Part shown: piece by piece, positions 1-16,680 of the stretch
Position numbering within the stretch: position 1 is the stretch's first letter
Layout: each line of letters starts with the position of its first letter
NCBI GenBank assembly: GCA_951406725.2
Contig: OX597817.1
Span: 88,412,001 to 88,476,000 of the forward strand
DNA: 64,000 bases
Direction of reading: 5' to 3'
DNA from: Octopus vulgaris
Taxonomy: Eukaryota
Notes under the pieces: model-generated
What the model saw: only the letters and a program-made list of their open reading frames with translations
The model's database searches: none
Told to the model about the DNA's origin: nothing
Position numbers and translations under genes: made by a program

Positions 1-499
1 AAGGTTCAAGAGAAAATTAACAGACTCTTTTATTACAAATGATAATCATTGGTGGCAAAAAAGGGGGCTAAGAAAAACTGAATGAAGTTAGTTTGGCTGT
101 CCTCTCAGATGTTTTGATGGTTTCACATGAGCATGACATCCATCAAGGTCCCCCATGCATGTTCTTAATTAAACATTTGCCATCCACTGTCCTGAAGCTA
201 GTTGTTCACAAAGGTTAAATGTTTTCTTCCCCTGTTGATTCTTCCTTCAACTAACTGCCATAAGACAATTGGCAACAAGGGTCTTCTGGGTACCTGATGC
301 AGTGACCAACAATTCACATCCTTCTCTGCTGAATCTTCTCAGTTACTTTGGGTAGATCTTGATAAAGATACTCATTGGTCAAATGAGCTCTCCATGTAAT
401 ATTCAGAGTCATTCTTAACATTCTTGTGTGACATTGTGTACTATAAGTCTTACAATATACTAAAGTGTTATAGTAATAATCAGTGTTATTATTTTGCAG

Positions 500-790
500 G
501 ACTTTTCATATGGTTATCTACCACAAACTATTTGTCTACCAGAACAGACTTACACGGCTAGAAGAGCTTACCAAGTATTTTGTCAATATCATACATATAT
601 TGATTCAATAAGTCAGTTTGTGGAGAATAACCTTAAAAATATAATTGTTATGAACTCACAAAGATACAGTGAAGACAACCAATGTCTTATAGAACAAGGA
701 GAAGATTTCAATAAACTCCGATCACTTCAAACATATTTGCTAAGTGAATCAATGCAAATGGAAATGGATAGATTTCTGGCTGACCTCTGA
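500..790 (+). CDS. Probable terminal coding exon of an unidentified gene that starts upstream of the window
   Basis: Acceptor ttattattttgcag at 486-499, then a 96-codon non-repetitive open frame (DFSYGYLPQTICLPEQTY...MDRFLADL) ending in TGA. No family recognised. Confidence 0.45.
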   Translation, partial: DFSYGYLPQTICLPEQTYTARRAYQVFCQYHTYIDSISQFVENNLKNIIVMNSQRYSEDNQCLIEQGEDFNKLRSLQTYLLSESMQMEMDRFLADL

Positions 791-864
791 CAGAATGTAA
801 CTTTGACACTGAAATATATAACTATGACCACTATATTTTTAGAAAATTTAAAAAGAACATAGAT

Positions 865-975
865 GCAGTGAGCTGGCGGCATTTCGCATCTTTACATTCG
901 GAGTTCAAAATCCACTGAGGTTGGCTTTGCCTTTCATCCTTTTGGGGTCAATAAAATAAATACCAGTTGAGTACT
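865..975 (+). mobile_element. tRNA-derived SINE family A, partial copy
   Basis: gtgagctggc...gagttcaaaatccactgaggttggctttgcctttcatcc...aaataaataccagttgag; the same sequence recurs more than 10 times in the window. Confidence 0.75.
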
Positions 976-977
976 GG

Positions 978-1310
978 TTTTAGTCAGACAAATGGACCCT
1001 AGTACTTATTCGATCAGTCTCTTTTAGAGAACTGCTAATGAGGTTGTAAACAACCAACATCAGTTATTAAGTGGTGGTGGGGCAAACACAAATACAAAGA
1101 CACACACATATACATCTTTCCTTCTATATAGACATATATGTTTGTATACAATGGGCTTCTTTCAGTTTCCATCTACAAATCCACTCACAAAACTTTGATC
1201 AGCCTAGGACTATAGCAGAAGACACTTTCCCAAGGTGCAATACAGTGAGACTGAACCAGGAACCACAGTTAGGAAGCAAGCTTCTTAGCACATGATCATG
1301 CCTGTGCCTC
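978..1310 (-). mobile_element. tRNA-derived SINE family B
   Basis: Reverse complement of the element at 35230-35640 (caccttggg..agtgtcttct..tatag...gagtggattt). Confidence 0.75.
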
Positions 1311-1354
1311 AGATCAATTTGATCCAGATGCAATATTGATTTAAAATTTAGGGA

Positions 1355-1540
1355 CAAGGTCAGTATTTTCAAGGGAGGGTGAAAGTCAATTAGATTGACC
1401 CCAGTGCTCAACTGGTACTTATTTTATCGATCCTAAAAGGATAAAAGGCACAGTCAATCTTGGCAGAATTTGAACTCAGAATTTGAAATGCTACTAAGCA
1501 TTTTTCCCAGCATGCGAATGATTCTGCCAGCTTACCCCCT
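1355..1540 (-). mobile_element. SINE family A
   Basis: Reverse complement of the copy at 11095-11310. Confidence 0.75.
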
Positions 1541-2476
1541 TAGAAACATCTGCAATATTAAACAAACTAGTGTGTAATTATTAGTCTGTGATAACAATGC
1601 TTTCTGGTAATTATCAATTTCCCCCAACATTATTGATATTCACAAGCAGTGATCTCAAATAATTAACACTAATGTGTGTGTGTGTGTGTGAGTCTATTAT
1701 TTTAACATGACACTCCCATATTGGTATCGGACTATTTGGAACATGAAATGAAGTAGAAGGAATAGGTTGGTGGTTTCCTAGACATCCCTTTGGTTACATC
1801 TTTGCAACTGGCTCAGAAGATAGACTCAGTAAATGGCAACCTGAAAATACATTACAGGGTCCTTTTGTATGCATGCAAGCTAAGTTCCACTGGTTAAAAG
1901 TGATTCAAGGCAATGAAAATGTAGATAAGAGAAAATAAGACAAGGACGTATCAAATAATAACAAATAAGAATTTATTTGAAGAAATTTCAATATTTTAAA
2001 TGTGAAAACAGAAAAATTATAAGAGTAAATTTAAATAATTTTTAGTCTTGGTAATCATTAAATTTCAATAAAAAAAATCAAAACTATTTGTTTAAAAAAT
2101 ATTTTTTTAATTGAATAAAACAAAAAACATAAGATAAAATGTTAAAGTTTATTGAGGCACCAAGTTTAGGAAATAAACACTTTGATATTTCACTGTGTTT
2201 ATTAAGAAAAAAACTTTTTTATAGAAATTTGAATTATAAAAATATTTGATAGAAAACATCTGAAGTAGATATGCTCTGACTTAAAATAAAAATACACAAA
2301 GGATAAAGAGAAAAAGAAAGTGAAAGTAGGTTTGAAACTGGAGATTTCAAACAAAAAGAGTTACAGAAAGTTTTCACCGAGAAATTAAGGAGAATGTTTT
2401 ATTCTGTATAGTTAAGATTCAACTATCATTTTGAAAGGCAAAGATAAGTGATTCTGATACTCTTTTTGTTGTTAAC

Positions 2477-2577
2477 TCTTTGTACATTTGATGTTAGACT
2501 GATACTTCCAAAATGAGGCTTTCCAAATATGGCTCTGGCCTCATAATTTCATGAGTTCTAGCAAAAATATACAAAGA
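2477..2577 (-). promoter_or_regulatory. SECIS element (type II) in the MSRB1 3' UTR
   Basis: Minus strand reads ctttgtatattt-ttgctagaactc-ATGAA-ATTATGAGGCC-AGA-G-CCA-TATT-TGG-AAA-GCCTCATTTT-GGAA-gtatcagtctaacatc-aaatgtacaaag. It has the AUGA/GA core, helix II ATGAGGC/GCCTCAT, an apical mini-stem CCA/TGG and a 12-bp basal helix with one G-U pair. It lies about 1.65 kb downstream of the stop of a gene with an in-frame TGA. Confidence 0.85.
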
Positions 2578-4200
2578 ATAAACTTCAAAATGAATATTTT
2601 GAAGGGAGATAGATAAAATCATATTTTGGTTTCTGATTAATGTCTCTTCTAGAAAAAAAAAGTAATGAAAATAAAAATGCTATTGTAGATTGTGCAGTGA
2701 GAATAAATCAATATTAATTTAAACCATAGTTATATTGAGACAGAAATACAGGTATATCTTCCTCAAGAAAAGTAATTAAATATAAACAATTCTTATAAAA
2801 ATAATTTACCTACAGATCAACATCAACACTTTTAACAGAAATTTAAGTAACATATAAATGAGTTATGTTACCTTCAATAACCATAAAAGAAATTAATGTA
2901 TAATTGAAGATATATACATACATATATAGTGCAAAAGATGATGATAATACTAACTTACTGATTTGATGTCTTAAAACATAGTTATGAGTATCTCAATGCA
3001 TACACAACATTGTTTATTTAACACAAAGGCAAGTCAGAAAATATATAAAGTCAACATTAAATCATATTGTGAAATGTGAAAATAAAGCTCCCTTTGGCAG
3101 GAATTTTACTAACTCATGAAAATTCCATGGAACTGTATGCTTTAATGAATCAAAGAATCACATAAATCAACATAAGGAAAACACTAGATTGAAAAATAAG
3201 ATAGCCTTCAATCAGAAGACTACATGGTCATTTAGGAGAGTAATAATTGTTAACTTTACATTTAAAACATAGTAGTATGTAAGAAGCCAGTTATTTGGAG
3301 ATGGTTAACATCAACCAAATACTATTGTGAGATATTGGATGAAAAAGAAAAAAATTAACAAGAATAGAGAAACACTGGTCAGTCACTATTCAATGACACC
3401 TGTTTAGATGATATGAAGTTGAAGAATAAAACATCATCAGTTTTCTGCACCTAAGAGTGAGGAAGAACAACACAGATATGCCATGTATAATAGGATATGT
3501 AGAAGATATATTTTATGCTGTTTTTCAAGTTTTAGATATTCTTTTATGAAACACAAAGCTGCCATTTTATATCATAGGATTCTGAAAGACACATATTATA
3601 TATATTTCTAACAGCAATAAAACATTGATAAACCCATGTAAACATACACATAAAAGTGGATTAAAATAAAAACAAGTCTCAGTTCTTTAAAACATAATTT
3701 CAACTACAGCAATCTCTGCAAGAAATCTTGGAAGTTCATCTTCTGTTTAAGGATATACCATTTTGTTTATTAGTTACAAATTCTGGTCCAACTAATTTAA
3801 TCTGTACACAAAATCAATACATTTGGGTTATTTTCTTCATTTAAAATTTTAAAAATAACATTACATAATAATTCAATTAATAACTAGTATGATAAGTGTG
3901 GTCATTACTCTGGGAGACACTCTCATTCATTCTAAAAAAAATATGAAAAAAAAAAACAGCTCCATAGCAGTGCTATAATTCTATCCTAATGACAATGCTA
4001 GATTTTCAAGTTTGTTCCAAAATGAAAAACTAGCATAAATTTATGAAAATTAATAAGATTGTATAAATTACTCTTTTAATAAGCTGTTACAAGAACATAT
4101 GAAGAAAAGTGAAGAGGTTAAAGAATTGTAAGCAACTCAATTTCAGAATACTCAAAATATATTTGAAGTTCAATCTCTCTTCCTTTCATAAATTAGTGCC

Positions 4201-4323
4201 CTAAGACTTTCTAGGAACAAATTTCAGGGCACTACTAAATATTCAGTATCGATTTTTACCAAGCTGAGGTCCGTCATTCAAGAATTCATGTCCAAGACTA
4301 TTGCCACATTTTGCACAGGAAAT
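4201..4323 (-). CDS. MSRB1: MSRB1 coding exon 3 (last), containing the selenocysteine TGA at 4243-4245
   Basis: Polypyrimidine tract and ttggtag acceptor, phase 0. Translates [26 protein letters not shown](TGA=U)IFSSALKFVPRKS-TAG, matching recalled vertebrate [38 protein letters not shown] on both sides of the TGA. Confidence 0.95.
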
Positions 4324-4793
4324 CTACCAAATAAAAAAAAGGAGAAAGGAGATAAATTAAAACAAAAATACTTCAAAAATAACTAAAATTATCTTGAAAA
4401 GTAAACTCTTTTAGATACACCCCAACACAAAATTCAACACTGTTTACCCACATTGAAATATCTGGTAAGTTTTCAAGACAACTCATTCTTTAAAAGAATT
4501 TTAAGGCTTACAAATTTGAACATGAGCCACTAATATGGTAACAAATTGCATTAGGAAAGGCATCCAGCTGTAGAAACCATGCCAAATAGGCTCTAGAACA
4601 TGATGCAGTCCTTGGGCCCAATGGATCTTGTCAAATACTGTCAAACCATGTTAGCTTGATAAATGAATGTTTAATGATTATTTGTTATTTCATAAATAGC
4701 TCAATACTTGATTTCCTTAAAAGAAAAAAAAAAATCAACAGAATCCCAACAATTCCAAAATCATGTCAATCAAACTATCAAATTATGTTGTAC

Positions 4794-5000
4794 TGGTGAG
4801 CTGGCAGAATTGTTGGCACACTGGATAAAATGCGTTGTGGTATTTTGGCCGTCTTCACATTCTGAGTTCAAATTCTGCTGAGGCTGACTTTGCCTTTCAT
4901 CGTTTTGGAGTCGATAAGTACCAGTTGAGTACTGGGGTCAATGTAATTGACTATGCCTCTCCCCCAAATTTCAGGCCTTATGCCTATAGTAGGGAGGATT
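4794..5000 (+). mobile_element. SINE family A
   Basis: ggtgagctggcagaattgttggcac...ttctgagttcaaattctgctgagg...cctttcatc. Confidence 0.75.
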
Positions 5001-5457
5001 ATTCCTTTACAAGACCATTCATATTTCATTCATATTTCTATACAGAGAATTTGTCACATCTTTAACAATTAAGAATCTTTTAGTTAGATTTTAACTGAGA
5101 TGCTCTCTCTCTCAAAGGATGGAAAGTTAACACCTTTTGGTTTCATTTCAGTTTTCAATCCTTATTATGTATTCTTCAATCTTAGTCACTTTTCTTCTCT
5201 TTTCTTTCCTCTTCTACTCCAGTAAAATAGTGTGGCTATCTATTTCAAAAATAATTTAATATACATGTGTATGTGAGTGTATCTAATCAGATTAACACTC
5301 ACCCATTTACTCTCATTAAACCATTAAAATAAATTTAAAAGACACAGATACGAAATATAAATATATATATACCAGACAACACATTTACCTGCAAGATCTG
5401 TATTTGATGGCTTCTTTATTGCTTATGCAATAAACACACACACACAATATATATATA

Positions 5458-6405
5458 CTAGCTTAAGGTGACCCACTCTACATGCGGGTAAGAGTGTGGT
5501 TGTTACTTTCTGTTGCTTCCTTTCTGTTTTTTATCACCACATTCTCCTTCTTTGTTTCTCTCCTTTCTCTCTCACTTTCTCACTCTCTTACTCTTCCTTT
5601 CTCTTGGACTCTCCCTCGCTGTCTCTTACTCTCTATCTTTCTCTATCTATCTCTCTCCCATTTATAAACAACAAAAGATCTTGAGTAAGTTGAGAAATAA
5701 AATATTTTGAAAGATCAATCATAAATATCAGGCAATGACAATGGAAAGGTCTGCTTCAAGGCAGACAGCAAAACACTAACATTTAAAAGGGACAGACGAA
5801 CTTGCTAGCTGAAAAAAAAATATTGGAAACCAAAGTTTGAAGGGATAGAATCTGAGGATAGTAGAGTCACCATGGCTGGCATTTCTTAACGATGGACAGC
5901 AACGTTTTGACAGTTTAACGGCTGGCGTAAAATTTTGAACTTGATGTGAAAGAAAATCCCTAAACATCAAGTTTTGAAGTGATTCTTTCTCACGACAGTA
6001 GACTCACCATGGCAAGCATTCAAAACTTCTTCATCATGGACGGCAACACATTGACGATTAAAAGGCTGGCGCAAATTTTTTTAGTTTGATGTAACAGAGA
6101 ATTCCTAAACACCCACTCCTTTAAATTTTAATCCCCTTCCAGCCCCATTTAGACCCCTTTTCACATTTTGGTTAATATAACCCGATTTCATTCGGGTCTA
6201 CTGGGGCCACATTTTATAAGATGAGGAATTTTGTCCTAGAGGTCACGCCTTTCATTTGAGGAAAAAAATAGTTGCCATGCGAACTCGCCAGCACTTTTAA
6301 CATAGGTGTGCATATTTTCAGCTCAACCGACTACATAATGCACACATTATATATATGTGTGTGTGTACGCATTATATATACAAATTATATATATATAATA
6401 ATAAT

Positions 6406-6437
<32 letters not shown>

Positions 6438-7050
6438 CAATTCAAAATGAACAATTTTGAATTGATAAAAGGTGTTTTTTTTCTAATTTTATATATATAT
6501 ATATATATAAATACATATATATACACTTTGTATATATACATTATATATACATATTTATATATAGAACACACACACACATACACATATATAAATTAACCCA
6601 ATAAATATCTGATTCATAATATTTGTTCTCATGATTGTGTGGTGGTGGTGGCGATAATAAAACTCTATGAGACAGACATACAGAAAGAGAGAGTGGGAGG
6701 CAGTGGTAGAAAGTGTGACAGCGCTGGCGAAGGTGATGGGGGAAAAGATAGTAGTATCTGTCAAACGTCATTATAGAGAGAAAGTGATGGGAAGGGAGGA
6801 AACAGAGAGAGACGGAGGAAGACATGCAGATAAGAGAATGAGAGTAGACTTGTCAAAGTGTGCGTTTTTTGCCCTAGCAACGACACCTTTTAAGATAGGG
6901 ATTTCTAACCTTGCCCACTCACATCCTCATCTCATTTTACATGTCCCTGTAAATTTTGGAGTCAATCCAACGGGATCTAGTGGCCTTTAACCCGTTCTAA
7001 TGCCAAAACCAGACAAACAAATTTTTTGCATTTCAGAATTATAATATATA
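5458..7050 (-). mobile_element. Non-autonomous Helitron-like element, followed by the 3' end of a second copy starting at 7051
   Basis: CTAG terminus with subterminal hairpin (ctagcttaaggtgacccactctacatgcggg) at 5458, repeated at 7051; internal microsatellites and an internal duplication (about 5860-5970 vs 6000-6110). No clear TC at the 5' end. Confidence 0.6.
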
Positions 7051-7791
7051 CTAGCTTAAGGTGAGCCGCTCTACGTGCGGGTAGGAGTACTTTAGTACAA
7101 CTGGATTTGGCAATAGGTCTAGAAAAAGAATAGTACTTATGATTTTGTAAATAGTGCTAATTAATACTTATCCAAAATATGCCCATAAAGTTGTTACATT
7201 AGTGTACTTACTGATATACTTTAAAGACCAACCGCCTGTTGTCTGTAATATATATATATACTGTGAAAAACCAATGTAATTTGCGCACTTGTGTAATTTA
7301 TGCACATGGTTTACAGGATAAAAATTTTTAAAAAAGCTTCTACTCATTTAAAATTTGCACCCAAAAGTTTTCATAATTGCCAGTATGGCCAGGAGAAAAA
7401 AGTCTTCACTTTAGTTGTAATTAGCATAATTTCACTTACTTATGATTAGATTTTATTAAATTTTCATTAAATAAAAATAATTTCTGTTTAACAGTTATCA
7501 CATTGAAAGCTATTAAATTATGAAGTGTTTGTGTTTATAATAAACATTGTTTTACATTTCTTGCTCACAAGAAATTATGTCTGATCTTTAGCATACTTCT
7601 GTATGTCTTCTCAAATCACGATCACCAGAAAAGTTGTTGATAATTCTTATCAACAAAAACAAAGCTGATAAATATGCTCAAGAGTTGCAAAATAATTTTA
7701 ATTACCAATAAACATCAGTTTGGATGACAGTTTACTCAATCGACAGGGGAAGATGACCGATTAAACTGATTATGTAAACAGAATTCTGATT

Positions 7792-8311
7792 AGAAAACTA
7801 CTCATTTTAAATCTCACAACAAGAGATATTCAGCAACAGTACTTTGTAGTACAGATTGTTTGCCAACATAACATGGCAGTCCTGGTTTAGGACGAATGTT
7901 GCTGTAATTTAGCCCCTGGAGACATCGTCTCCAGCTAGCTATATGACATGATCTGTATTCTTATATTTTTGAACAAGGGAATCTCGTTGTGAGATTTAAA
8001 AATAGTAATTTTGTAATTTATAGATCAGTGACTAGTTGTCACATTGAAAACTATATATTTCGAATGGGAATTTGGCAGCACCACCTCTAACCAAACAATT
8101 ATTCTGTGCTGATGAAGGGAAACAACCTGGAAATCGCAATACACAGATATTGTTTTGGGCTGAGTGGGGGTGCTAGATTCCCTTGTTCAAAAATATAAGG
8201 ACACAGGTCATGTTGTATAGACAGCTGGAGACGATGTCTCATGGGGCTAAATTACAGCAACATTCGTCCTAAACCAGGACTGCCATGTTATGTTGGCAAA
8301 CAATCTTTACT
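7792..8311. mobile_element. Penelope-type inverted-repeat element with a central hammerhead motif
   Basis: Inverted arms of about 135 bp (7852-7984 vs 8175-8306); 14-bp direct repeat acagaattctgatt on both flanks; CTGATGA...GAAA motif at 8103-8147. Confidence 0.65.
8103..8147 (+). ncRNA. Minimal type I hammerhead ribozyme motif with imperfect stem II
   Basis: tctgtg-CTGATGA-agggaaacaacctg-GAAA-tcgcaa-TA-cacaga; stem I tctgtg/cacaga. Confidence 0.55.
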
Positions 8312-10084
8312 ACAGAATTCTGATTGGTTGAAAGTGTCTTCTTGTCTCAACCTCTGATTTTCAACCTATTCTTGTCAGAACCTTTGATACAGAGTATTGA
8401 AACTTGAATCCCTTTCATACTTATAAAATGTCAAGCAAACTGAAAAATTTGTCATTACCATTTTACCTGGGAGACCAAGTTTGGTAACCCGTTAAAATAA
8501 ACATTAAAAATTGAAAGGAGAAAATAAACAGCTTTGCAAGTTTAATTCAGTGTTTCTTCAACAAGAGAGGTGCGAAATTTAAGAAGCGACTTGTTAGAAT
8601 ATACACATCTATATAGCAAAAGAACCAGTAATACATACATTACAAGTGTTCTGTGAAGAGAACATAAGATTGCTGTGTAATTCAACATGAATGTAAAATG
8701 ACATTAAACATCATATAGGGTAAATGAAGGTTTCTGTAGGAACGCTAAGTCATATTCACTTACTGAATTTATATGCACAAGGATGAATTATGATCTTGTC
8801 GTCGGTGTCAGATGCAGTGAGAGCTGGTAGCAGCAATATCAGTGGTGATGAATTTCATTGTCCTAATATGGAGAAAGCAAGCAATAGCTTCCTGGAGGCA
8901 AACACAAGCTAGACTTCTTAAGTGGAGAAAAACTGATCTATTTAAGGAAATTGCTGGGCTCCATTGCAGTAGGTAGAAACTCCAAGCAATGTAAAATATG
9001 ACCCAGACTGTGATTACCAGCATGAACGTCAAACTTCAAAAAGTAGTTATCTATTTAATGGTTTTAGTAAATTTATACAGGAAAAGTAAGCATTATACTA
9101 TCCATCATAAATAAAAGTCAACATCATTATATTTAAGCCATTATTTTTTCGGTAAAAACCTATTCTGACATTAAATGAGTCAACTTATGGTATGAATGTT
9201 TACATTTATATGTCATTTTCCAACAAAAGAATTTCTAAAAAAATTTTGGAAACAATCTACTCATGTAATTTATGCAACCACTAAAGTTTATTTTCGTTTT
9301 TGTGAAAAAAGAGCATAAATTACATGGGTTTTTATGGTATATATATATATATATATTTCTCTTTTCTTCAGACTTAATGAAGATGGGAGGAAGTGCTTAT
9401 AACTTTTGAAATTCCTTCTAAAGACTGGTGATAATGATATGGCTGATGTTCCGTGTGAATACCAGCAGGAAAACCATAGGTAGGAAGGAAGGTGAAAATA
9501 GCGAGAAGGAAAGACTGGACATGGTAGTTAATGCAGGACATTGGTGGGTTTCAGATACTATATCAATGACAAGATGTGGAGAGACAGGGAAAAGTTGTCT
9601 GGTGGGTCTAGATGGAGATAGCATGAAGTTAGCTAGCTCTGAGGAATTGAGCTTTGGACTTTCTTACACATAATAGAGGGTGTGTGTGGAGATGTGTGTG
9701 TGTGTGTGTGTATACGCGTGTGTGTGCACGTGTGCTTATATAGATTTCAATGCATTTTGTTAACATAAATTTAATGACTATGAAAATATGGATGATTACA
9801 CAAGTACACACATTCTCAAGGTGTTTTTATCATTTACTATGCTTACTAATGTTAACAACACTTCTTTCTCAATAAGTAACAAACAGAATGCAATAGATTT
9901 TGAATAATGAATGATCTTGATTCCTTAGTATAGATTAAGAAGAAATAAAATATTTAAATCAAGTTAAAAGCCAATATTCCCTTTAGTTAGAAAATCTCTA
10001 TGAGATGAAAGTAGAAACTAACCTGAGAAGTAGTCCTGTATGAACTGATGTTACTACCATTTTTAACATCCAAGAGGATGCTTC

Positions 10085-10225
10085 TAGCTAATGCAACTGC
10101 ACCCAATATATTTTGCAAGCAGGGGAGCAAATACCTACCATCTATTAACCCCTATCAACCAGGTGGTCCTGTTGACTCGCTAGTAGATGGCAGGGGTTTG
10201 CTCCTTTGCTTGCAATGTATATAGG
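10085..10225. repeat. Imperfect palindrome, MITE-like hairpin
   Basis: gcaagcaggggagcaaatacctaccatcta pairs with tagatggcaggggtttgctcctttgcttgc. Confidence 0.55.
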
Positions 10226-10584
10226 ACACAGATTACATTGATAACCAGCTAGAGGAAGTTAAAAATGGTAACAATGCCAGTTCATAAGGAAGACCCATGT
10301 TGAAGAGGCAACAAATATTACTTCTCAATATTCCTTTTATTTTCTGGAGTAGAAGAAATTTCTTAATCTCAGTTACCCAATTTCCATATTGTATAAGTGA
10401 CTGAGATTCCAATATTCTCCCTGAACAGGACACCAGTCTGTCATTTGCAGCTGAGTGGATTAGAGCTACACAAAAATGAAGTGTTTTGCTCAAGAAAACA
10501 ATGCACTATCTGGTTTGAGAATCAAAACCATGATCTTGTGATCATAAATGCAATACGCTAATCACTAGGTCACATGACTTCACA

Positions 10585-10760
10585 ATCATCATCATCCTTT
10601 AATGTCTGTTTTCCATGCTGGCATGGGTTGGACGGTTTGACTGGAACTGGTAAGCCAGAGAGCTGCACCAGGCTCCAGTTTGATTTGGCATAGTTTCTAC
10701 AGCTAGATGCCCTTCCTAACGCTAACCACTCTGAGTGTAATGGGTGCTTTTTACGTGCCA
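10585..10760 (-). mobile_element. Short retroposon family C with (ATG)n tail; other copies near 4545-4680, 31835-32110, 33395-33560, 45060-45370 and 46800-47105
   Basis: Shared gagtggttggcgttaggaagggcatccagctgtagaaac...atgccagcatggaaa...atgatgatg. Confidence 0.7.
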
Positions 10761-10841
10761 TTTACATGACACCAGTAATAGCCACAACTAAAGAAATAAA
10801 TTTAAAAAAAAAACAAAGAAACATTAGAAATAATAAATTAC

Positions 10842-10984
10842 TTTGATTGCAGAAGGAGATTCTTGATATCTGCTGACAAGATCTGGATGAATTAAACTGA
10901 AAAAAGCTGGCCACGGAGAAGTGTGTTCATACTTTTTCAAACTGTCAAACAAAGGAGTGTTGCATTCAGCACAGTTGTATGTAC
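10842..10984 (-). CDS. MSRB1: MSRB1 coding exon 2
   Basis: tttcgtag acceptor, gtaatt donor, 143 nt, phase 1 to 0. (G)TYNCAECNTPLFDSLKKYEHTSPWPAFFSLIHPDLVSRYQESPSAIK carries the first CxxC zinc motif and the MsrB1 SPWPAF signature. Confidence 0.95.
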
Positions 10985-11094
10985 CTACGAAATGAAAGAA
11001 GAAAGCAATGAAATAAATAGCATAAATATTCTAATATCTCAAGTACTTAGGGTATTCTAGACTATTAACAGCATTGTTATATTACTATTAATTA

Positions 11095-11585
11095 GGGTGG
11101 CAAGCTGACAGAATCATTAGTACACTGGGCAAAATGCTTAGCGGCATTTTGTCCGACTTTATGTTCTGAGTTCAAATTTTGCTGAGGTCAACTTTGCCTT
11201 TCATCTTTCAGAGTCAATAAAATAAGTACCAGTTGAGCATTGGGGTGGATGTAATTGACTTACCTCCTCCCTGAACTTGCTGGCCTTGTGTCAAAATTTG
11301 AAATCAATATTATTATCAATTAGGGCAGCAAACTCATGGAATTGTTAGCACATTAGGCAAAATGCTTAGCGGCATTTTGTCTGCCTTTATGTTCTGAGTT
11401 CAAATTCCTCTGCGGTTGACTTTGCCTTTCATCCTTTTGGGATTGATAAAATAAGTAGTAGTTGAGCACTGGGGTTGATGTGATCAACTTATCCCTTCCC
11501 GAACTTGCTGGCCTTGTGCCAAAATTTGAAAGCACTATTACTATTAATTAGGGTAGTAAACTCACAGAATTGTTAGCACACTGGG
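11095..11585 (+). mobile_element. Tandem SINE family A copies (two full plus the start of a third)
   Basis: Near-identical units at 11095-11310, 11323-11535 and from about 11550. Confidence 0.75.
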
Positions 11586-11591
11586 TAAAAT

Positions 11592-11745
11592 ACTACTAAT
11601 TTCAGTACATTGGTCATAGTAAAAATAGGAGAGTCTTCCCTTTCCTAAGTTTGTCTCCAAGTTATATACCAATTGCTCTCAAATCAAAGTGATTTATTAA
11701 AGATGCTGAGAACTTCATTGCAGGGAAAAATTGCCATTTACTCTC
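11592..11745 (+). repeat. Fragment of the Gypsy-like element found at 47400-48960
   Basis: High similarity to 48412-48560 (tttcagtacattgg.catagtaaaa.t...accaattgctctcaaatcaaagt). Confidence 0.65.
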
Positions 11746-12627
11746 AGACACATAACTCTACAGCAACAAATACTACAACCCATGAACATTTCTGCATTTC
11801 AAGTGCTTTTCCCATGGAAATTCATTGCTCTTCTGGGTAACGATACCTCCTGGACTTACATAAACAATTAGTCATTCAAACAACAAATTGCGTGCCTAAA
11901 CACTACTCAATAAATAACAAGCCGTAACCACATTGCATAGAACCAGATAAATGATAAATATTTAATTCAGGTATTAGAAGCCAACTGATATTAATAGCTC
12001 AAAAGTATAATAATAGGAAAATAAGAAAAAAAATTGTTTCGAAATTCTAATAGAGCAATAATTCTGTTTTCTTGGCAACTTTATGTTCAATCAACAGCTG
12101 TTAAATATAGCATGCTTTTCCCTAAATGTATCTTTGTGCTTGTGCATGTGTAATAATATCCATTAATAATTAGTCATTCATGGAAACATAATGGATTAAT
12201 TTTAAAGTTGTTAAAACACACACACACACACATACATACATACATAATGAACACATGAGACACAAAGACCTTAAACTTCCAAGATACAACAGCAAGTGTC
12301 AATCAAATTATTCCTCTGTAGAGGACATAACACATGTAATTAACAGCTGTCCCAAAAAGGTCATTGAGATACTACCTCCCACTGTGACATGATGTTGCAG
12401 AAAAGACTTCCTGGAGATAAATATTAAAAAGATACTTGTGGAATTCTGCTTTATGCATGCCATATAACCCCCTCATAACTTTTTTATTTTTTGGGAATTT
12501 TCAGAAAATTTTTGTATATTTGTGTTCTACACAGGAGAATTCATTCGACTATGGAAAAAAAAAAAGAATACTTTGTATGTACAACATCTTCATGTTTTTT
12601 CTTGTCCTTTTTTCTCCTTTTTTTAAT

Positions 12628-14864: not shown

Positions 14865-14919
14865 CATCTTCGAAATGGTCTCGGTAATGTTCAGAACCAA
14901 ACCAACAGGAGAAAGACAT
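14865..14919 (-). CDS. MSRB1: MSRB1 coding exon 1
   Basis: ATG at 14919, 55 coding nt MSFSCWFGSEHYRDHFED(G), donor gtaagg. Matches recalled vertebrate MSFCSFFGGEVFQNHFEPG. An acceptor ctttgtag one base before the ATG implies an upstream non-coding exon. Confidence 0.92.
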
Positions 14920-16289: not shown

Positions 16290-16680
16290 AATCACTGTAT
16301 TCACAAGCAGTTAAGGAGGAAGTTTTGAAAGTATAGTTGCTAGAATAAGAAGGCTGGAGAAAGTTGAGAGAGCTAGTCATAGTAATAAAAGGTTTCTGTT
16401 TCAGAATGAAAGGTAGATTGTATGATGTTTGTGTAGAAACAGCAATGCTACGGGGCAAGGAGATGTAAGCCTTGAATGCAGAGGACTTGCAAAAATTAGA
16501 ATGAAATGAAATTAGCATGCTCTGTTGGATGTGCAATGTTAATGTGCATAAACAATGAAATATGTGTTGAGAGAAAAACTGTGCATAAATGGAGTCAAAT
16601 AAGGTGTACAAAAGTGAAGACTGAGCTGGTATGGACGTGTGATGTGTGTGGATGAGGGTGGCTGCATAAATAGGGATATA
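16290..16680 (+). mobile_element. Decayed RTE-like LINE 3' ORF fragment; related pieces near 33700-33950 (-) and 37540-37850 (+)
   Basis: Translates to KGRLYDVCVETAMLRG...RLSWYGRVM with stops. Confidence 0.55.

Follow-up and report, generated by a model that had tools for sequence, protein, structure and literature searches.

The MSRB1 gene of Octopus vulgaris has a UGA in its reading frame and, far down its 3' UTR, a hairpin that probably works as a SECIS element of type II whose apex is relaxed, a reading to which we give a probability of roughly 0.8. This hairpin (minus strand, 2577-2477 of the window, that is, of the whole 64,000-nt stretch of DNA that was analysed) is predicted to have the core, the helices and the apical bulges of a SECIS, while the conserved apical AA is missing. 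From what is known of selenocysteine (Sec) insertion, the intact kink-turn core (GA/GA) would recruit SBP2, eEFSec would bring Sec-tRNA with its domain 4 contacting the apex, and the UGA at 4245 would then be decoded as selenocysteine, the lost AA being tolerated, possibly at lower efficiency. The apex itself would be under relaxed constraint: an unpaired bulge at the right height with isolated adenines may suffice, its middle base being free to vary.

The MSRB1 gene and its transcript

The gene that hosts the hairpin is a three-exon MSRB1, which is laid out as follows.

14865..14919, minus strand: first coding exon, with the ATG at 14919 (18 codons and one further base, then a GT donor)
10842..10984, minus strand: coding exon 2, with the first CxxC (Pfam SelR, E 1.6e-8)
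4201..4323, minus strand: coding part of exon 3, with the second CxxC and the Sec codon (Pfam SelR, E 1.4e-7)
4243..4245, minus strand: in-frame TGA, the predicted Sec codon (by exon count, residue 93 of 106)
4203-4201, minus strand: TAG stop
1956..4200, minus strand: 3' UTR, about 2.25 kb

Exons 2 and 3 each exceed the Pfam SelR cut-off, exon 2 is 94% identical to the MsrB of Octopus bimaculoides, and exon 1, which matches the N-terminus of a database protein (P0001), is probably spliced to exon 2, judging by homology. The features of the family are all present (a SelR domain, two CxxC motifs and, close to the C-terminus, R[FY]UIFS with the predicted catalytic Sec), and this membership suggests that octopus MSRB1 acts as a methionine-R-sulfoxide reductase. 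The TGA, at which the four runs with spliced contigs have no other letter, aligns with the position left blank (the mammalian selenocysteine) in three mammalian database MSRB1 sequences, the 13 residues past it continue the alignment, and exon 3 is 64-69% identical to these three proteins, residues beyond the UGA included. The genome also holds eEFSec exons, including those for domain 4, and tRNA-Sec genes with a UCA anticodon. There are at least three tRNA-Sec-like genes (L058, L059 and L060); two of them, with equal scores, sit on C24 in opposite orientation and 57 kb from each other. A second MsrB gene (L047 and L048, on C3) has no stop in its matches and is probably a Cys-type paralogue.

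The reading frame bears on the idea that the hairpin is a decaying or very weak SECIS and that translation of octopod MSRB1 mostly ends at the UGA. Such decay would fit an apex with AA in no register, the silence of the Rfam SECIS model RF00031 and an apical base that differs between two close species, and AA is essential in the mammalian assays described in the consulted parts of PMC2761289 and PMC1802603. However, the frame of exon 3 has kept its likeness to mammalian MSRB1 through the post-UGA codons, the core is intact, and the related species discussed below has a compensatory change in helix I. Moreover, database MSRB1 proteins (P0001, P0002 and P0003, which include those of O. bimaculoides and Argonauta) end directly before the Sec position, and the ends of the O. 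bimaculoides and Argonauta proteins, exactly at the Sec codon, are consistent with a retained UGA. We therefore consider decay unlikely.

Since the RNA labels of the sequencing runs are guesses, transcription is inferred from the exon 2-exon 3 junction (loose end 4323), which is found in contigs of five runs. In four of four runs (X8, X9, X10 and X14, from four studies), contigs that depart from the genome at 4323 and continue as exon 2 sequence cross the hairpin unbroken, with no other letter in 2477-2577, which places the hairpin in the transcript, as the original prediction had required. Of the other runs, X1 and X19, which are of genomic type, agree with the hairpin sequence (the window itself may derive from X1), X21 yielded nothing, and the near-identical runs covering the AGA site (6/6) have no other letter there, at the resolution of contigs, which lose rare variants. 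The notion that AGA stems from a faulty assembly or a private allele, with AAA as the true sequence, is thus refuted at contig level, all the more as the related species has U rather than A; nothing was found in its favour, and its probability is negligible. A-to-I editing is ruled out as the origin of the G, which is present in genomic DNA. Among the near-identical runs, allelic differences in the UTR occur at 2214 (three alleles), 3182, 3623, 3946 and 3956, and none lies in the hairpin.

Single contigs span from 4323 down to 1956, 1958, 2028 and 2051, and two of them end 14-16 nt past an AAUAAA at 1977-1972. The hairpin was also proposed to be subject to an on/off switch, in which alternative polyadenylation upstream of it would deprive the mRNA of Sec insertion. 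Hexamers that could serve this purpose lie between stop and SECIS (AAUAAA at 3771 and 3018; AUUAAA at 4080, 3801 and 3146), and poly(A) variants without SECIS are described for human SELENOP in the consulted part of PMC5133445. Yet such hexamers are common in AU-rich sequence, four contigs pass them unbroken (contigs cannot show RNA ends), and in run X24, from the related species, contig depth is similar before and over the SECIS (20.7 and 17.6), which is weak evidence against the switch. With the hexamers as the only local point in its favour, we find this switch quite doubtful.

The distance from the stop to the AUGA of the hairpin is 1,648 nt, in agreement with the predicted 1.65 kb or so into a long 3' UTR. 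Within this UTR, the hairpin gives the most stable 113-nt segment (-32.0; best elsewhere, -23.5). It is also the single match in the 2,251-nt UTR of a SECIS-shape filter that accepts any apical motif (RUGA..KGA, at least 8/10 pairs, inner energy of -9 or lower) and that was defined when the hairpin was already known; among 500 dinucleotide shuffles, three gave any match and none gave one as stable. If another, canonical SECIS in or beyond the UTR directed Sec insertion, the hairpin would be incidental, and two further pattern matches might be invoked for this, namely AA at 3437 (loose pattern, the sole AA match) and CC at 3117. Neither folds as a SECIS: the inner stem of the former reaches -1.9 to -5.3 kcal/mol and lacks helix II, and the latter folds in another register. 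Re-implemented strict and default SECISearch1 patterns match nowhere in the UTR, and the transcript contigs end at 1956-2051. No second canonical SECIS was thus found in the UTR, and an incidental hairpin is very improbable. Outside the gene, about 1.4 kb before the MSRB1 start codon, the SECIS filter accepts a GUGA..AAA..UGA hairpin at 16304 of the window (minus strand), probably by chance.

Predicted fold and its fate in a related species

All the motifs that had been named for the hairpin are found on the minus strand at the places given for them, and the predicted fold arranges them as follows.

2552-2548, minus strand: AUGAA, followed by 11 nt to AGA
2536-2534, minus strand: AGA, followed by GCCA-UAUU-UGG
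2522-2520, minus strand: AAA of the 3' bulge, followed by 10 nt to GGAA
2509-2506, minus strand: GGAA, 3' side of the core
2544-2538/2519-2513, minus strand: helix AUGAGGC/GCCUCAU
2576-2565/2489-2478, minus strand: 12-bp basal helix with one U-G pair
2583-2565 with 2489-2471, minus strand: full basal stem, 18 predicted pairs (pair probabilities 0.75-1.0)
2560-2554 with 2500-2495, minus strand: predicted helix I, which closes the internal loop below the core
2506..2552, minus strand: hairpin from core to apex, with the AUGAA/GGAA quartet, helix II, the apical bulges and helix III

The fold as a whole (2585-2470) has a predicted energy of -34.9 kcal/mol (z = -4.93), and none of 200 shuffles is as stable. 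The prediction gives a SECIS shape, with core, helices I-III and apical bulges, as had been claimed. The AUGAA/GGAA quartet fits UGAN/KGAW with an unpaired 5' R. Helix II is predicted to consist of seven firm pairs plus A-U, U.U and U.U; 8 of the 10 positions above the quartet are paired, seven of them at a probability of at least 0.9, and the weak part is confined to the three positions directly above the core (A-U at a probability of 0.45 and the two U.U). Its predicted height is within the type II range (about 11-16 bp including the quartet). Helix III would be CCA/UGG with a UAUU loop (pair probability 0.88-0.94). Between helices II and III, five bases are predicted to be unpaired on the 5' side (CAGAG, 2537-2533), and the AAA at 2522-2520 on the 3' side has an unpaired probability of 1.0. 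In this model, 'AGA' is one of several registers within the CAGAG bulge: the triplets found 11-13 nt above the core are CAG, AGA and GAG, the dinucleotides are CA, AG and GA, and AA occurs in none. An alternative apical fold, in which CAGA pairs with UUUG, was rejected, being 2.1-2.2 kcal/mol worse and broken by the U that the related species has at 2535.

This species, organism C (run X24), is approximately 91% identical, with 39 differences in the 452 nt around the hairpin, 35 of which are listed, and it too yields a spliced contig. Among the differences listed, nine substitutions lie in 2477-2578, and they can be set against the predicted pairs: (i) two form one compensatory pair in helix I (C2555-G2499 to U-A), (ii) three keep a pair (G2540-C2517 to G-U, U2569-G2485 to U-A and U2578-G2476 to C-G), (iii) two are at unpaired positions (2564 and 2535) and (iv) two, at 2481 and 2571, break basal pairs. 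The extended basal stem of the original prediction is therefore present and stable, but it is not strictly conserved, 2 of the 12 pairs of the 12-bp helix being broken. The core, helix III and the 3' AAA are without substitution among the differences listed. Organism C probably also has a 2-nt deletion somewhere in 2500-2516, deduced from distance-to-end values by arithmetic that reproduces the five reported gap letters, and this deletion could touch helix II or the core. Two substitutions in the 47 nt of the upper hairpin, compared to 8.6% (39/452) around it, are no clear excess of conservation. Overall, the pattern is consistent with a kept structure and proves little, a single compensatory pair being thin evidence.

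At the apex, position 2535, the G of AGA, is U in organism C. Because the slot then reads AUA, AGA is not a conserved alternative motif. Neither species has AA at this place, and the middle apical base appears to be free; relaxed constraint is the simplest reading of an AGA/AUA apex.

Search models and other SECIS elements

Rfam scans of the window (1-12000 and 2450-2610) return no SECIS match, and RF00031 run on the 161 nt around the hairpin gives no match at E values up to 10. The gathering threshold of this model is 35 bits, and it confirms three AA-bearing candidates of the same genome, used as controls, at 35.3, 32.0 and 30.2 bits. A genome-wide RF00031 search gave 0 matches with 129 of 47,867 candidates scored, and it missed elements that were found locally, so that this zero carries no information. 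Given the blank on the 161 nt, the hairpin should not be filed under RF00031, and a model that is blank on it while AA-bearing elements of this genome score is a point against a working SECIS. As for descriptors, four SECISearch1 patterns were re-implemented from supplement S1 of PMC3753652 (this is not the original program, and it runs without the energy filter). The strict, default and loose patterns, which five AA controls pass, miss the hairpin, and Loose+ (AR|CC) matches it at p2 = 11; the AU that organism C has in the AG register is outside Loose+. SECISearch3 filters do not demand AA, which the grading merely rewards (PMC3753652, supplement S4). The claim that strict searches could miss the hairpin thus holds for Rfam and for patterns that require AA, but not for Loose+, which foresees AG.

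For comparison within the genome, 10-20 kb behind 12 candidate exons were scanned, and 11 loci were left once one weak SelM-like match had been dropped. Convincing SECIS candidates were found at eight of them (Sep15, three Rdx-family copies and four GPx); the other three, which yielded none, are a GPx whose match contains no TGA, an Rdx exon of a gene that probably extends past the scanned stretch, and an unverified SelK match. All eight candidates have AA in the 11-13 slot. This count is partly circular, two GPx candidates having been chosen partly for their AA, and it includes three Rdx copies that are not independent of one another. Weaker hairpins without AA were found in the scans as well, in either orientation (17 matches in sense and 27 in antisense). 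Because these eight have AA, the loss of the apical AA in MSRB1 looks like a gene-specific exception in this genome. Family searches of the genome gave no matches for deiodinase, AhpC-TSA_2 or SelS, which is no proof of absence, and weak low-complexity matches only for SelK. A MAFFT alignment of ten AA-type elements left their cores unaligned.

Two of these loci deserve a mention of their own. Rdx-family exons on C18 (56.81-56.90 Mb) are accompanied by three or four similar SECIS elements (L033:4818, L034:4766, L035:6456 and L035:1344), which lie within 90 kb and make up a tandemly expanded SelW/SelT/SelH-like cluster. In the GPx candidate at L036:1675-1716, the 3' side of the core reads AGAU, not KGAW, and the AUAA bulge overlaps an AAUAAA hexamer.

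A scan of metagenomes for MSRB1 gave seven loci with five distinct sequences. SECIS candidates with AA are found at L053/L054, L055 and L057; L051 has a weaker candidate whose AA lies one base higher, and L052 has none within reach. The candidate without AA (1/5 distinct sequences) is at L056 (3360-3403), a second and unrelated MSRB1 locus whose intron is at the same place as octopus MSRB1 intron 1. This candidate is well paired (z = -3.29), lies approximately 100 nt past the stop and is followed by AAUAAA; the base before its UGA is U, and its apex has GCAC instead of AA at the 5' side, with an A-run at the 3' side. A non-AA candidate at another MSRB1 argues for a working SECIS in the octopus gene.

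The 3' adenines of these two elements allow a more specific variant of the working SECIS, with which its probability overlaps. In this 'flipped' SECIS, the functional adenines would be on the 3' side of the apical loop, where the AAA at 2522-2520 might now do the work of the absent 5' AA and present eEFSec domain 4 with adenines stacked on the other strand, leaving the 5' slot free to drift (AGA, AUA). The AAA is indeed unpaired in the predicted fold, organism C has a substitution in the 5' bulge but none in the AAA, and L056 also combines a non-AA 5' bulge with a 3' A-run. At 91% identity, however, chance alone would leave three bases unchanged in about three cases out of four, pairing is predicted for two of the three adenines of L056, and no precedent was found in the literature searched. 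Both the take-over by the AAA and the flipped arrangement that it implies seem rather improbable to us.

What the apex of a SECIS must provide

Set against published elements, the hairpin of the preferred reading, a working type II SECIS, departs from the norm at its apex. The SECISaln consensus calls only UGA/GA invariant, with the quartet UGAN/KGAW (PMC2647825, in the part consulted). The octopus hairpin shares with type II SECIS elements (i) the location in a 3' UTR, (ii) the unpaired A before a UGAN/KGAW quartet, (iii) helix I, (iv) a predicted helix II of normal height and (v) an apical bulge with helix III. It differs in lacking AA 11-13 nt above the core, in its bulges of five (CAGAG) and three (AAA) nucleotides, and in that RF00031 is blind to it.

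A close comparison is the human MSRB1 (SelX/SelR) SECIS, which the consulted sections of PMC2761289 describe as a strong type 2 element with an AAAC apex and a fully paired helix 2. The two have in common the gene family, the aligned Sec position and the type 2 shape, whereas the octopus element has AGA (AUA in the relative) and two U.U mismatches near the core. According to the same sections, deletion of AAAC from the human element causes a dramatic drop in recoding, swaps of the whole apical loop shift activity only 2- to 5-fold, and helix 1 is a variable, minor determinant. In viral GPx4, a change of AA to TT abolished expression (PMC1802603, consulted in part). That the AAAC deletion and the change to TT cripple other elements counts against a working octopus SECIS.

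Natural exceptions are known. A CC apex is reported for vertebrate SELENOM and SELENOO (PMC3316567) and for human TXNRD3, as listed in PMC2761289, and the DsbA apex is CC in Ciona savignyi but AA in C. intestinalis (PMC2874816), each according to the part of the source that was available. The octopus hairpin resembles these in a gene- or lineage-specific loss of the apical AA from an otherwise normal element, and differs from them in that its replacement is neither CC nor fixed, being G in one species and U in the other. The available parts of PMC2375036 and PMC2792357 contain no further non-AA case, and neither this element nor AGA/AUA apices turned up in the literature searched, which extended neither to subscription papers nor to the SECISaln supplementary table (this table may list apical base frequencies and may hold AGA/AUA cases).

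The practical consequences are that Rfam and AA-based patterns overlook the hairpin and that the MSRB1 entries for O. bimaculoides and Argonauta in protein databases break off at the Sec position. As for the mechanism of recoding, it would be unchanged unless the 3' AAA proved to be the active part. Should the flipped arrangement be true, eEFSec domain 4 would recognise how unpaired adenines are arranged and not an AAR on one particular strand, and Rfam and AA-based searches would pass over a class of SECIS elements, of which L056 may be a second case.

Of the conserved parts of the SECIS, the apical adenines are understood least: their role is called unknown in the consulted part of PMC3316567, and they are placed at the contact with eEFSec domain 4 by secondary statements in parts of PMC12254956 and PMC12861234. 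The octopus element, a modest exception, suggests that they may be less strictly required than assumed, and the AGA/AUA pair, on an orthologous gene, amounts to a small natural mutational series on what the apex must provide.
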